Shown here in pieces: positions 2,336 through 6,267 of a stretch of 8,419 bases of DNA. Each line of letters begins with the position of its first letter. The stretch's first letter is position 1. Made by a program: the position numbers and the translations under genes. This DNA is from a virus. Lineage: Duplodnaviria; Heunggongvirae; Uroviricota; Caudoviricetes. The stretch is taken from IMG/VR virus record IMGVR_UViG_2671181188_000016. One strand, 5' to 3'. A model generated the notes under the pieces. It saw nothing but the letters and a program-made list of their open reading frames with translations. It ran no database searches and was not told where the DNA came from.

Positions 2336-2355
2336 AGGCGACCTGTGGCGGTCGC
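2336..2355 (-). terminator. Possible minus-strand terminator hairpin between convergent alpA and the RHH-like gene
   Basis: GGCGACC (2336-2342) and GGTCGCC (2349-2355) are inverted repeats with a 6-nt loop. On the minus strand the hairpin is followed by TTTGTTTTAT (plus 2326-2335). No T-run on the plus strand. Confidence 0.3.
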
Positions 2356-2444
2356 CAATGGGAAAACACTAAACATAAGCCCGAACATCATAGCGATTTG
2401 CTGTCTGGTGGGCAATGTGCTCAGTGTGCTGGCTTGCTGGTGGA

Positions 2445-2624
2445 CTATTCCTGCTCTTTGGCCTTGCGGCGCTGGCGGCGTTTGATCTCGCCTTCAAGTG
2501 CCGAAACGATAAATTGCCCAGTGCTTTCGCCTTCTTCCTTTAAATTTTCTACGGCGTCAGCTATTGCATGGGGGACTCGTGCCTCAAGTTTTTTGGATTT
2601 TCCATTAACTGCTTTCGTTGCCAT
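2445..2624 (-). CDS. Small ribbon-helix-helix-like DNA-binding protein, 59 aa from the internal ATG (longest ORF extends to 2807); candidate repressor/regulator
   Basis: Minus-strand ORF; the ATG at plus 2622-2624 has a good SD (AAGGAA, about 7 nt spacing), whereas the longer 120-aa form has a hydrophobic, shadow-like N-extension. KKLEARVPHAIADAVENLKEEGESTGQFIVSALEGEI fits a beta-strand plus two helices as in RHH proteins; basic C-tail. Divergent from a promoter carrying direct repeats. Confidence 0.5.
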   Translation of the reverse strand: MATKAVNGKSKKLEARVPHAIADAVENLKEEGESTGQFIVSALEGEIKRRQRRKAKEQE

Positions 2625-2645
2625 ATCTGATTTCCTTGTTATTAG

Positions 2646-2727
2646 GTGGCTGACAGTATACACACAAGAAAATGGAAAAACACTATTGACGTGGCTGACA
2701 CCTGTTACTAGTATAGTGGCTGACACC
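2646..2727. promoter_or_regulatory. Divergent promoter/operator region: rightward sigma70-like promoter (-35 TTGACG 2686-2691, 17-bp spacer, -10 TAGTAT 2709-2714) within three direct repeats GTGGCTGACA at 2646-2655, 2691-2700 and 2716-2725
   Basis: Near-consensus -35/-10 with 17-bp spacing read from the sequence. The 10-bp repeat occurs three times (copies 2 and 3 extend to GTGGCTGACACC): copy 2 overlaps -35/spacer, copy 3 the predicted start site, copy 1 a leftward -10-like TATACT (plus 2655-2660) upstream of the RHH gene. Confidence 0.5.
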
Positions 2728-2743
2728 TTTATTGAGGTAATCG

Positions 2744-2791
2744 ATGAAAAGACAAAGCCCGCAGGTGCTACCAACACCAACGGGCTTCTAA
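2744..2791 (+). CDS. Possible 15-aa leader peptide (MKRQSPQVLPTPTGF) just downstream of the rightward promoter
   Basis: ATG 2744 preceded by GAGGT with about 5 nt spacing; stop TAA 2789-2791. Too short to call with confidence. Confidence 0.2.
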   Translation: MKRQSPQVLPTPTGF

Positions 2792-2823
2792 CAACCAACG
2801 ATAGCAACAGTATCGAGGTAGCT

Positions 2824-3027
2824 ATGAGAAATCATACCACACACCCGCAAGGGCGGGACTCGCACAACCTGAATAAATACATCTGGCGTTTTCTGGCCCT
2901 GAGTGCCGGAGAATCTCAAATCATCCACGTAACCGCCTGGACGGAACGCGAAGCGCGTAGCCGTTGCCCGTCAGGTTGTGTTGCTGTATTTGTCGCCCGT
3001 ATTCGTCAGGGGGTGTGCCGTGCTTAA
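2824..3027 (+). CDS. Hypothetical small protein, 67 aa; uncertain, may be untranslated leader
   Basis: Downstream part of track ORF 2320..3027; ATG 2824 with GAGGT about 6 nt upstream. Arg/Cys-rich, not obviously protein-like; the upstream part of the track ORF overlaps the minus-strand RHH gene and the promoter and is rejected. Confidence 0.25.
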   Translation: MRNHTTHPQGRDSHNLNKYIWRFLALSAGESQIIHVTAWTEREARSRCPSGCVAVFVARIRQGVCRA

Positions 3028-3205
3028 AACCTTCCGCGTTTTTTCCCGTGCTGTTAACAAGCGCGGCTATACCGTTGGCATCACGCAGAACGTGAAGGCC
3101 GTTAATATGCAAGCGGCGATTGATTCAGTAATCAGTAATTCCGGTAAAGCAGGTTTATCACATGTAATTATTGCAGCAGTACATGAATTAAAAGGGGGGC
3201 ATTAA
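3020..3205 (+). CDS. Hypothetical small protein, 61 aa from GTG 3020 (track ORF from 2978); stop overlaps the next start
   Basis: ORF track 2978..3205. In-frame GTG at 3020 is preceded by an AGGGGG SD-like element; stop TAA 3203-3205 overlaps the ATG at 3205 (TAATG). Confidence 0.35.
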   Translation: MLKTFRVFSRAVNKRGYTVGITQNVKAVNMQAAIDSVISNSGKAGLSHVIIAAVHELKGGH

Positions 3206-3396
3206 TGAAGGAAATTACATTACACGAAGCCGCTGAACGTGCGCACCAGACAGAAATTATTTGCCGACTTCTTGAGGTGTACCCTAATAAATTAAATGAT
3301 GGTGATATATCCGCATTAGCTGGCCTTCTGGCAAAACTTTCTGGAAGTGTTGCGCTGTGGTTAATTGATGAGAGATTTAAACGCTATGAACAATAA
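3205..3396 (+). CDS. Hypothetical small protein, 63 aa (early operon)
   Basis: ATG 3205 with a G-rich SD (AAAGGGGGG) upstream; co-directional and tightly packed with neighbours. No recognisable domain. Confidence 0.5.
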   Translation: MKEITLHEAAERAHQTEIICRLLEVYPNKLNDGDISALAGLLAKLSGSVALWLIDERFKRYEQ

Positions 3397-3628
3397 CAAA
3401 CGCGTGATTCATGAACTGAATGAACTCACACAAAGCGCAATATCTTACAACAATGCCGTAAGTGAGATTATTAACGTCTGGTTTGAATCGCTGACAAATT
3501 GCGAGCGTGACGAGTCAACGACAAGATTAACCTTTGCCATTTCTGAATTACTGAATATTTCCACCAGCAAAATAGAGAGCATATCAGAGAAGATTAACGG
3601 CTTATCAGGTCACGCTATCGGAGAATAA
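3386..3628 (+). CDS. Hypothetical small protein, about 80 aa (track ORF from 3365; ATG 3386 preferred)
   Basis: Overlaps the preceding ORF's 3' end by 11 nt; GAGAGA SD-like about 9 nt upstream of ATG 3386. No recognisable domain. Confidence 0.5.
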   Translation: MNNNKRVIHELNELTQSAISYNNAVSEIINVWFESLTNCERDESTTRLTFAISELLNISTSKIESISEKINGLSGHAIGE

Positions 3629-3633
3629 AAATA

Positions 3634-3933
3634 ATGAAACTTAAATATTCTGGCTTAACTGCCAGCGGCAAAACTCGCACTAAATTCATGTGCGGGGATA
3701 TTTACCGCGATAAGTACGGCGGCACGGTAATGATTAAGGGCGTGGAGGAACGGCGCGTAACTTACCGCCGTGAAGGCTACGAATATGATTGCGTTATGCC
3801 TGTTTATCAGTTCAACCGTGATTTTTCTCTGGTACAGGCAGCGCCCCGCAGTAAGCCAACCAGCAGGGAGAAAGCACGCGCCAATATTCAGGAAATAAAA
3901 AAGATGCTTAACGTATTCAGGGGTAAAAAATGA
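3634..3933 (+). CDS. Hypothetical 99-aa basic protein immediately upstream of, and stop-start overlapping, the replication gene
   Basis: ATG 3634 with GGAGA about 9 nt upstream; stop TGA 3931-3933 overlaps the ATG 3930 of the next gene (ATGA). Lys/Arg/Tyr-rich. Its position before the primase gene is where P4 carries epsilon, but no sequence identity is claimed. Confidence 0.6.
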   Translation: MKLKYSGLTASGKTRTKFMCGDIYRDKYGGTVMIKGVEERRVTYRREGYEYDCVMPVYQFNRDFSLVQAAPRSKPTSREKARANIQEIKKMLNVFRGKK

Positions 3934-5684
3934 AACTGGCACCGAACGTAAAAAAACAGCCACGCGGAATAAAACACAAAGACACAGAGGTGATTATTTT
4001 CGCGGGTAGTGATGCGTGGGCACATGCAAAACAGTGGCAGGAGCAGGACGGCCCCGCATCCGGCGATAATGTGCCTCCTGTGTGGCTTGGGCCAAATCAG
4101 CTTGCCGAACTTTATGCACTGCAAATTGTTCCTGATGGAAAAAAACGCGTAAGGCTGTACCAGGCAGGAGAACTGGACTTGGTGGAGACCAAAAAGATTG
4201 GTCAGAAGCTGGCGGCGGCAGGTGTACAGGATGCAAATTTTTACCCCGAAGGAATGCACGTTCAGAAGGTGGAGAACTGGCGCGAATATCTTGCCCGTGA
4301 GCGCCAGAATCTTTCTGATGGTCTGGTCGTTGAGCTTCCGGTAAAGCAAAAGGCGCAACTTTCACAGATGGCGGACAGTGAGCGCGCGCAGATGCTTGCT
4401 GGTCGATTTGATGGCGTTTGCGTACATCCTGAAAGTGAAATCGTTCACGTATGGCGCGGCGGGGTATGGTGTCCGGTCAGCACAATGGAACTTAGCCGCG
4501 AAATGGTGGCGATCTATTCAGAGCACAGGGCCACTTTCAGCAAGCGCGTAATCAATAACGCCGTTGAAGCGTTAAAAGTTATTGCCGAACCAATGGGGGA
4601 GCCGTCCGGCGATTTGCTGCCGTTCGCCAATGGTGCGCTTGACCTGAAAACGGGGGAATTTTCCCCGCACACGCCGGAGAACTGGATCACCACGCACAAC
4701 GGCATTGAGTACACGCCACCAGCACCTGGGGAGAACATCCGCGACAACGCGCCAAACTTTCACAAATGGCTTGATCACGCAGCCGGAAAAGACCCGCGCA
4801 AGATGATGCGTATATGTGCCGCGCTGTACATGATTATGGCGAACCGGTACGACTGGCAGATGTTTATTGAGGCCACCGGAGACGGCGGTAGCGGTAAAAG
4901 TACATTCACACACATAGCCAGCCTTCTGGCAGGGAAACAGAACACCGTAAGCGCGGAGATGACATCACTCGATGATGCAGGAGGGCGCGCGCAGGTTGTC
5001 GGGAGTCGTCTTATCGTCCTGGCTGACCAGCCGAAATATACAGGCGAAGGAACGGGCATCAAGAAAATCACGGGCGGCGACCCCGTGGAAATTAACCCGA
5101 AATATGAAAAGCGTTTCACGGCGGTAATCAGGGCGGTGGTGCTGGCGACCAACAACAACCCGATGATATTCACCGAACGGGCCGGAGGCGTGGCACGTCG
5201 TCGGGTTATTTTTCGCTTTGACAATATCGTTAGCGAGGCAGAAAAGGACAAGGATTTGCCGGAGAAGGTCGCGGCTGAAATCCCTGTGATTATCCGCCGC
5301 TTGCTGGCTAATTTTGCTGACCCTGAAAAGGCACGGGCTTTATTACTGGAACAGCGCGACGGTGATGAAGCACTGGCGATAAAGCAACAGACAGATCCGG
5401 TTATTGAGTTTTGCCAGTTCCTGAATTTTCTGGAGGAAGCGCGCGGCCTGATGATGGGTGGCGGTGGCGATTCCGTGAAGTACACGACCAGAAACAGCCT
5501 TTACCGCGTCTATCTGGCGTTTATGGCATACGCAGGAAGAAGCAAGCCGCTAAACGTGGCTGATTTCAGCAAGGCCATGAAGCCAGCGGCGAAAGTTTAC
5601 GGACATGAATATATTACGCGAAAAGTTAAGGGAGTAACGCAGACCAACGCAATTACAACTGATGATTGCGACGCGTTTTTATAA
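3930..5684 (+). CDS. Replication initiator: primase/helicase-type protein with P-loop NTPase domain (P4 alpha / D5-like, SF3 helicase class), 584 aa
   Basis: Walker A motif ATGDGGSGKST and a downstream hydrophobic stretch ending in Asp (RLIVLAD, Walker B-like) read from the translation. Size and position (followed by an iteron array) match satellite pri-rep genes. The numerous minus-strand ORFs inside it are shadows. Confidence 0.85.
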   Translation: MKLAPNVKKQPRGIKHKDTEVIIFAGSDAWAHAKQWQEQDGPASGDNVPPVWLGPNQLAELYALQIVPDGKKRVRLYQAGELDLVETKKIGQKLAAAGVQDANFYPEGMHVQKVENWREYLARERQNLSDGLVVELPVKQKAQLSQMADSERAQMLAGRFDGVCVHPESEIVHVWRGGVWCPVSTMELSREMVAIYSEHRATFSKRVINNAVEALKVIAEPMGEPSGDLLPFANGALDLKTGEFSPHTPENWITTHNGIEYTPPAPGENIRDNAPNFHKWLDHAAGKDPRKMMRICAALYMIMANRYDWQMFIEATGDGGSGKSTFTHIASLLAGKQNTVSAEMTSLDDAGGRAQVVGSRLIVLADQPKYTGEGTGIKKITGGDPVEINPKYEKRFTAVIRAVVLATNNNPMIFTERAGGVARRRVIFRFDNIVSEAEKDKDLPEKVAAEIPVIIRRLLANFADPEKARALLLEQRDGDEALAIKQQTDPVIEFCQFLNFLEEARGLMMGGGGDSVKYTTRNSLYRVYLAFMAYAGRSKPLNVADFSKAMKPAAKVYGHEYITRKVKGVTQTNAITTDDCDAFL

Positions 5685-6243: not shown

Positions 6244-6267
6244 AGCCGGAGCAATCCGGCTTTTTTT
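6244..6267 (+). terminator. Rho-independent terminator
   Basis: Stem AGCCGGA (6244-6250) pairs with TCCGGCT (6255-6261), loop GCAA, then a run of 7 T (6261-6267). Confidence 0.7.

Follow-up and report, generated by a model that had tools for sequence, protein, structure and literature searches.

The question raised by this locus is whether the interval between alpA and the replication genes of a mobile island holds a switch of the immunity type. The DNA is IMG/VR virus record IMGVR_UViG_2671181188_000016 (Caudoviricetes), and the whole stretch that was analyzed, 8,419 nucleotides, is called the window here. Its gene content in domain searches showed that it is nearly the whole of an island of about 9 kb, of the phage-inducible chromosomal island (PICI) type of Gram-negative bacteria. 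An earlier note, made from the letters alone, had proposed that between positions 2445 and 2727 a gene for a small protein resembling ribbon-helix-helix (RHH) regulators diverges from a strong rightward promoter, and that three repeats are embedded between them. This observation was confirmed, and its interpretation was supported and extended. Sequence comparison makes it likely that the small protein, a 59-aa member of the YlcI/YnfO family, is an RHH immunity repressor acting on three operators (O1, O2, and O3), and that it controls, together with a SymR-like antisense RNA, an operon running from an icd-like gene to the primase gene. The locus would show a new, uncharacterised protein family in a regulatory role that is already known; the kind of system is not new.

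Sites and promoters between the divergent genes

The sequence GTGGCTGACA was present exactly three times, at 2646-2655, 2691-2700, and 2716-2725, and no further match was found in the 8,419-base window, even when one mismatch was allowed in the 10-mer or two in the 11-mer. A 10-mer in three copies was obtained in only 3 of 200,000 shuffles of the 119-nt intergenic region. Each copy forms the core of a putative operator, written here for the plus strand. O1 (2644..2658, AGGTG-GCTGA-CAGTA) overlaps the leftward promoter at its -10 and start region, where it could serve for autoregulation. O2 (2689..2703, ACGTG-GCTGA-CACCT) shares the last base of the -35 hexamer of the rightward promoter and occupies the spacer, and O3 (2714..2728, TAGTG-GCTGA-CACCT), whose core begins 2 nt past the -10 hexamer, lies over the transcription start region. 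These positions, over the rightward -35, spacer and start and over the leftward -10, were as the earlier note gave them, and the layout proved to be conserved across genera.

The rightward promoter, P_R, is TTGACG-17-TAGTAT (2686..2714, plus strand). It had been described as near-consensus; the hexamers lie at the place given, and they and the 17-nt spacer are conserved across loci, but the adjective was generous for a match at 9 of 12 positions. On the minus strand, a -10 hexamer, TATACT (2655..2660, read from 2660 to 2655), adjoins O1 and belongs to the putative promoter of the RHH gene. This gene occupies 2445..2624 on the minus strand (ATG 2624-2622, stop 2447-2445) and is preceded by the Shine-Dalgarno sequence AAGGA, read from the sequence at 2633..2637. 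The 59-aa open reading frame (ORF) is real, and an identical copy of the island in E. coli has it annotated.

Related loci were collected by a scan of one genome per species, which gave 66 loci from Escherichia, Xenorhabdus, Pectobacterium, Yersinia, Serratia, Proteus, Morganella, Dickeya, Kosakonia, and others. AlpA was encoded nearby in 43 of them, an integrase in 41, and a primase in 22, so that they are mostly the same kind of element. Three matching sites were found upstream of the RHH gene in 57 of the 59 loci that could be evaluated, which span many genera of the Enterobacterales, and the details of the layout were counted over 55 clean loci. In these, O1 starts about 21 nt from the ATG of the RHH gene, and (G/A)TATACT or TATAAT stands next to O1 on the strand of that gene in about 45. 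The spacing from O1 to O2 was 45 nt in 45 loci and was constant to 45 +/- 1 nt. O2 abuts TTGA(C/A/G)G in 48 loci; a 17-nt spacer follows in 45, and TAnnnT is present as the -10 in about 50. In contrast to the fixed distance from O1 to O2, that from O2 to O3 varied from 22 to 36 nt, which suggests a constraint from the back-to-back promoters or looping between O1 and O2.

Comparison of the sites showed that positions T1, G2, C8, and A9 were invariant and G0 and C10 nearly so, while the five central bases varied. The full site is a pseudo-palindrome of 11-15 bp, (A/G)GTG-N5-CAC(C)T, with TG-N5-CA inside, and O3 was inverted relative to O2 in 25 of the 55 loci (for example L037, L045, and L057). 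Three identical direct repeats had been claimed. The three copies are there, at the positions given, but since the sites are pseudo-palindromic and O3 is often inverted, symmetric dimer sites is a more fitting description than direct repeats. In three Xenorhabdus loci (L005, L006, and L015) O3 or the entire promoter region was deleted and the repressor gene was retained; these may be decaying islands.

The same module was found in EcCICFT073, the prototype Gram-negative PICI, in which C_RS30120 (YlcI/YnfO) diverges from C_RS30125 (Icd-like) and the operators are GGTGGGGGACAG, GTGGGCCACAC, and GTGGGCCACAC. Both genes were added only by the RefSeq re-annotation. At the DNA level, a copy of the module was detectable in at least 492 of 5426 complete E. 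coli genomes, with up to four copies per genome. The suggestion that the organisation is distinct from that of enterobacterial PICIs is therefore incorrect: judged by these sequences, the module is an overlooked part of ordinary PICIs.

Operator cores and the 59-aa protein

The N5 cores fell into about 20 classes, and the cores within a locus matched one another. Summed over O2 and O3, the median number of mismatches was 1 within a locus and 6 between classes. Each N5 class was paired with one or a few versions of residues 8-17 of the protein, the predicted beta-strand. Examples of such pairs were KSKKLEARV with GCTGA, KSKRFDVRV with TCCGA or TCGGA, KSQMTTVRI with TATTT, KSQQLNARF with CGATT, and KSLQVSVRL with GTGTT, and the EcCICFT073 strand KSQALKARV was paired with the core GGCCA. 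The operators of locus pairs identical in residues 8-17 differed at a mean of 0.26 positions, and those of pairs with three or more residue differences at 3.56. In a partial Mantel test, operator distance correlated with strand distance given the rest of the protein (r 0.56), and the reverse correlation was 0.29; these covariation statistics are inflated by the shared descent of the loci. Residue 14 tended to track the central base, with Asn where it is A and Lys where it is a C:G pair. The pattern is what would be expected of one dimer per site. That operators of the RHH style overlap the promoters, as had been proposed, is thus supported by three sites that change in concert and track the beta-strand of the protein, and the proposal of an immunity-type switch gains from the existence of about 20 operator/protein specificity classes.

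The 59-aa protein was assigned to the YlcI/YnfO family (NCBIfam NF041551) with 61.9 bits over residues 9-50, against a cut-off of 30. An AF2 model, made from 34 homologues, had a mean pLDDT of 87.8 and showed an extended N-terminal segment followed by helices at 19-28 and 35-58, which is the beta-alpha-alpha topology of RHH (MetJ/Arc) proteins in about 45 residues. The turn between the two helices is a hallmark of the RHH fold and sets the N-terminus of helix B on the DNA backbone. In the 34 homologues this turn, G32-E33-S34-T35, was invariant or nearly so, in keeping with the G-x-S/T/N turn that is conserved in RHH proteins. The sub-threshold Pfam hits among the homologues fell mainly to RHH families: CB_ParB_C was hit by 5 homologues, PSK_trans_fac by 3, and RHH_1 by 1. 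The fold prediction that the earlier note had called for thus agreed with its description of the protein as RHH-like, and the 59-aa protein is predicted to be a ribbon-helix-helix protein. A profile search of PDB sequences with the protein gave no match. The most conserved part of the family is a C-terminal motif, EIKRRQR(R/K)K (residues 46-55; window 2445-2490), which resembles an arginine-rich RNA- or DNA-binding motif.

The family is small, with 89 representatives at 50% identity among 1.84 billion proteins. K-12 YlcI is merely 22% identical to the window protein, and the layout of three sites was not found upstream of K-12 ylcI in DLP12, where that stretch is the cos/nohD region. A search of 50,697 phage records by tblastn gave no homologue of the family. 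The idea that a YlcI homologue of a helper phage poisons the repressor by forming heterodimers is unsupported, given this result and the low identity of K-12 YlcI. No paper giving YlcI/YnfO proteins a function was found among open-access papers and bioRxiv preprints.

Proposed control of the operon and alternative explanations

P_R faces the Icd-like gene (2824..3027, plus strand; NCBIfam NF033153, E 1.4e-17), the first gene of the putatively repressed operon. Opposite the leader of this gene, the minus strand appears to carry a SymR-like RNA of about 78 nt (2746..2823) in cis-antisense orientation; this region begins just to the right of the coordinates considered in the earlier note and was missed there. 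The putative RNA has two covarying hairpins, and the one at 2755-2787, in its 3' part, is a terminator hairpin with a U-run behind it. The consensus fold of 48 aligned loci has two hairpins, in which 96.7% of cells are paired on the antisense strand (143 of them as G-U), in comparison with 83.3% on the sense strand. Fifteen of the 22 pairs change on both sides, none of 500 shuffles matched any of the observed measures, and slid controls gave 32-44% pairing. The U-run past the second hairpin was seen on the antisense strand only (5.1 versus 1.4 T in the following 10 nt), and the window RNA had a folding energy of -32.6 kcal/mol (z -4.25). The icd-like Shine-Dalgarno sequence (2815-2818) has its complement in the 5' part of the RNA and would be paired by it, in most relatives together with the start codon. 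A putative extended -10, TGgTATGAT (2831..2839, minus strand, read from 2839 to 2831), lies 7 nt before the inferred start at 2823; TAnnnT stands 7 nt ahead of the inferred 5' end in nearly all loci, and the same geometry is found in K-12 symR (TAGAAT-N7-AGTCAT). The leader was conserved at the DNA level even in loci with a diverged repressor region.

The SymR covariance model aligned end to end with the antisense leader strand of several relatives, at 28-40 bits. The best match, 40.4 bits, had an E value of 1.7e-6 in a 300-nt search and of 4e-4 in 68 kb, and the gathering threshold of SymR (Rfam RF01809), 61 bits, was not reached by the relatives. The predicted RNA shares the architecture of SymR, being cis-antisense to a downstream Shine-Dalgarno sequence and start, with two hairpins and an intrinsic terminator, and it is probably homologous to SymR, though by the Rfam threshold it does not belong to that family. 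RNAs of the C4/isrK type have been reported in some Gram-negative PICIs (PMC10111431), but neither the window nor 11 related loci gave a match to the C4 or isrK covariance models (E <= 1). Two other candidates in the leader were rejected. A 15-codon ORF at 2744-2791 (MKRQSPQVLPTPTGF) was not accepted as a leader peptide, since neither the frame nor the peptide is conserved in EcCICFT073 and the structure and U-run favour the opposite strand. GGTG-N7-CACC in the leader hairpin was not accepted as a fourth operator, since its centre is independent of the operator class and its bases are matched in a stem of the RNA.

The rest of the operon (3021..5684, plus strand) consists of small ORFs, a DUF4222 gene that is RgdR-like (3634-3933), and a P4-type primase gene (3930-5684). 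A terminator scan found no strong plus-strand terminator-like site between P_R and 6244-6261; a weak one, with 3 G-C pairs, was found at 5648-5670, within the end of the primase gene. As there is no strong terminator and the genes downstream of P_R overlap or abut, P_R was taken to be the proximal promoter for this operon, from the icd-like gene through the RgdR-like gene to the primase gene. On the other side, the scan placed the RHH gene's intrinsic terminator, made up of GGCGACCGCCACAGGTCGCC and then TTTGTTTTAT, at 2337..2356 on the minus strand, between the convergent alpA and RHH genes. This GC-rich hairpin is a good terminator for the minus strand only, and rightward transcription from alpA may pass through it.

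RHH proteins are obligate dimers whose antiparallel beta-ribbon enters the major groove of repeated sites; that the 59-aa protein would do so gains indirect support from the covariation of the operator core with residues 8-17. In the mechanism we propose, RHH dimers would bind the three pseudo-palindromes of 11-15 bp, (A/G)GTG-N5-CAC(C)T. Recognition of the variable N5 core would fall to residues ~11-15, which vary and form the middle of the beta-ribbon near the dyad, and recognition of the invariant TG/CA flanks to N7, K9, S10, and R16, which are themselves invariant. Sites over the spacer and start of P_R are in repressor positions, and a site on the repressor's own -10 and start is in an autoregulatory position. 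Occupancy of O2 and O3, over the -35/spacer and the -10/start of P_R, would silence the icd-like, RgdR-like, and primase operon in the integrated island, and O1 would provide negative autoregulation. The antisense RNA, made constitutively, would pair with the icd-like leader and ribosome-binding site and damp leaky expression. Islands with different operator and repressor specificities would not repress each other when resident in the same cell.

Several observations weigh against this reading. A match to the consensus at 9 of 12 positions occurred 12 times in the window, where 12.4 are expected by chance, so that the match of P_R alone is no better than chance; P_R is credible because it is conserved in related loci, not from the quality of its match. 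The leftward promoter has no recognisable -35. Rfam gave no SymR hit for the window copy at E <= 10, in the whole window or in 2640-2960. The AF2 model is a monomer, whereas the RHH fold is an obligate dimer; Pfam gave no hit for the window protein at E <= 1; and a Foldseek comparison of the model with the PDB was not significant. Besides the inflation of the covariation statistics given above, the core TCCGA occurs with two different beta-strands, so that the recognition code is not one-to-one. Finally, the induction of EcCICFT073 has been explained by AlpA alone, over-expression of which suffices for excision and replication (PMC6092414). It follows that AlpA-dependent transcription must bypass or defeat any repressor. 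The AlpA of P. aeruginosa acts as an antiterminator. One way past repression, which we offer as speculation, would be for transcription from alpA to run on through the convergent repressor gene and reach the operon.

The strongest rival explanation is that the region is a cassette for stabilisation or toxin control, in which the RHH protein and the SymR-like RNA merely restrain a toxic Icd-like protein, in the way that SymR restrains SymE, while the replication genes are served by AlpA-dependent transcription from upstream and AlpA is the sole regulator of the life cycle. This explanation fits the homology of the leader and its antisense RNA with the SymE/SymR type I toxin-antitoxin locus, the annotation of Icd-family proteins as cell-division inhibitors, and the published finding that EcCICFT073 induction needs AlpA and can be brought about by its over-expression alone. 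It agrees less well with the operon itself, in which no strong terminator separates the icd-like gene from the primase and P_R is the nearest promoter, and with the specificity classes, as about 20 heteroimmune classes are typical of life-cycle immunity regions. The RHH gene is also monocistronic with a good terminator of its own, which argues against the arrangement of a type II antitoxin. We regard toxin control as unlikely, but it keeps appreciable weight.

An alternative that we judge improbable is that some other factor binds the repeats, for instance AlpA, the primase or initiator (as iterons of an origin), or a host protein, and that the RHH protein has its target elsewhere. AlpA, a DNA-binding activator, is encoded 130 bp away, and O1, about 70 bp upstream of the P_R start, is at a possible activator position; it is also general knowledge that the replication proteins of PICIs and P4 bind repeated sequences. 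PICI origins, however, are normally located after the pri-rep gene (PMC6092414), and here the sites are confined to the interval between two divergent genes, over a spacer and start where a repressor is expected. The operator class moreover follows the RHH beta-strand and not the identity of AlpA, integrase, or primase. The window and the Xenorhabdus islands have the same operator core, GCTGA, and the same strand, KSKKLEARV, yet their AlpA proteins are only ~40% identical, their integrases ~50%, and their primases ~52%, and loci whose AlpA is nearest to that of the window (63-67% identity) carry other operators. These discordant loci argue against AlpA or the primase as the binding factor. The last alternative, a chance or recent local duplication without function beside an unexpressed small ORF, draws on the 22-nt units 2682-2703 and 2707-2728, which are 82% identical and look duplicated in tandem, but it is effectively refuted by the comparative data, namely an architecture present in at least 55 loci across genera with all three sites changing in concert and family-wide invariant residues in the protein, and by the rarity of three 10-mer copies in the shuffles.

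The preferred reading, an RHH repressor on O1 to O3 with a SymR-like RNA, can be widened into a bolder claim, which we put forward only tentatively and consider somewhat on the doubtful side. The YlcI/YnfO RHH protein would then be the missing master repressor of Gram-negative PICIs, the functional counterpart of Stl, keeping the replication operon off in every EcCICFT073-type island and having to be defeated by AlpA- or helper-driven transcription; the roughly 20 classes would mark heteroimmunity groups, on which it would depend what islands coexist or silence one another, and chromosomal symE-symR would be a domesticated remnant of the cassette. If it is true that the protein represses the replication operon, Gram-negative islands have a repressor layer after all, the role of AlpA is to be re-read as overcoming repression, and removal of the repressor from EcCICFT073 is a way to test this directly. 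A question that has stood open in satellite biology would thereby come within reach of direct tests. About 20 natural pairs of operator and beta-strand are also a dataset for RHH recognition rules and for orthogonal synthetic repressors.

The island and its closest known systems

The island has the features of a Gram-negative PICI of the EcCICFT073 type. Such an element measures about 9-15 kb and occupies a chromosomal site, with int and alpA at one end, and it encodes a P4-type primase and packaging or capsid proteins. The integrase gene (1-1224) is followed by an ORF of unknown function (257 aa, 1221-1994), which lies between int and alpA, and by alpA (2086-2310; Pfam Phage_AlpA, E 3e-16). 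Downstream of the primase there is a small-terminase-like gene and then a capsid gene. This gene order agrees with that of EcCICFT073, and the identical copy in E. coli ERL06-2503 sits between yljB/cspD and clpS. The Rfam int-alpA RNA motif (RF02996) was above threshold between int and alpA in five related islands (L020, L022, L026, L049, and L062) but was not found in the window, where the 257-aa ORF occupies the interval instead.

The DUF4222 protein of the window is 85% identical to the CFT073 protein C_RS06980, which has 99 aa with RGD at residues 20-22 and fits the published description of C1493, that is RgdR, a type III secretion regulator. The window copy has CGD in place of RGD at these residues (R20C), a change reported in the inactive ED1a variant. 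As the operon under P_R includes a member of the RgdR family, which influences type III secretion in EHEC, the switch may bear on the expression of virulence genes.

In the literature, AlpA activates its own expression and that of island genes and is needed for EcCICFT073 induction and transfer (PMC6092414). Later papers either mention YlcI/YnfO only among accessory genes or deal with C4/isrK-type immunity RNAs. Going by open-access papers and bioRxiv, the switch itself appears to be undescribed.

Several known systems resemble it in part. In regulators of the Stl/Rpr type of Gram-positive PICIs (SaPIs), loss of the repressor de-represses the island, and a helper-phage protein inactivates the repressor. 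The likeness is one of map position: between int and pri, a gene for a repressor, here a predicted one, diverges from the excision and replication operon. Stl is a large HTH protein unrelated to the RHH protein, whose gene is not co-oriented with int, and Gram-negative PICIs also require AlpA. From Omega (pSM19035), CopG, and other array-binding RHH regulators the module differs in having an 11-15 bp pseudo-palindrome with a variable 5-bp core instead of a 7-bp heptad, and three separated sites instead of a contiguous array.

The RNA part is most readily compared with SymE/SymR of E. coli K-12. Shared features are a 5' end opposite the start codon, an anti-Shine-Dalgarno loop, a UUGUGxUUAG linker, a terminator loop containing GUGUUGG, a -10 located 7 nt before the start, and similar N-termini of the proteins (MTDTHS versus MADTQS). 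However, symE is under the control of a LexA box, located where the islands have O2 and O3, and beyond the N-terminus SymE shows no relationship to the short Icd-like protein. Chromosomal symE-symR (L070, E. coli K-12 4579499-4579911) looks like a relative of the cassette at 2745-2850 of the window.

By its logic, the closest known system would be immI of phage P22, and the next closest immI of P1 (c4-icd-ant). In immI of P1 and P7, with its c4 antisense RNA-icd-ant arrangement, and in the CI RNA system of P4, a gene of the icd family likewise comes first in the repressed operon and an RNA blocks translation. Here, the RNA is predicted to be cis-antisense, of the SymR type, and not a processed sense-strand RNA acting in trans, and the putative repressor is an RHH protein with local operators, not C1; no sequence homology to P1 immI was found. 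P22 immI comprises the RHH repressors Mnt and Arc, the divergent promoters Pant and Pmnt, and the sar antisense RNA. No sequence homology to it was detected either, and the operon described here has no antirepressor gene but icd-like and replication genes, with one predicted repressor and three sites in comparison with the two repressors of P22, each with one operator, in an element that is a phage satellite and depends on the activator AlpA as well. Common to both would be a gene for a small RHH repressor divergent from the regulated operon, operators over back-to-back promoters, autoregulation, which is here predicted, and an antisense RNA of about 70 nt acting on a ribosome-binding site in the operon.
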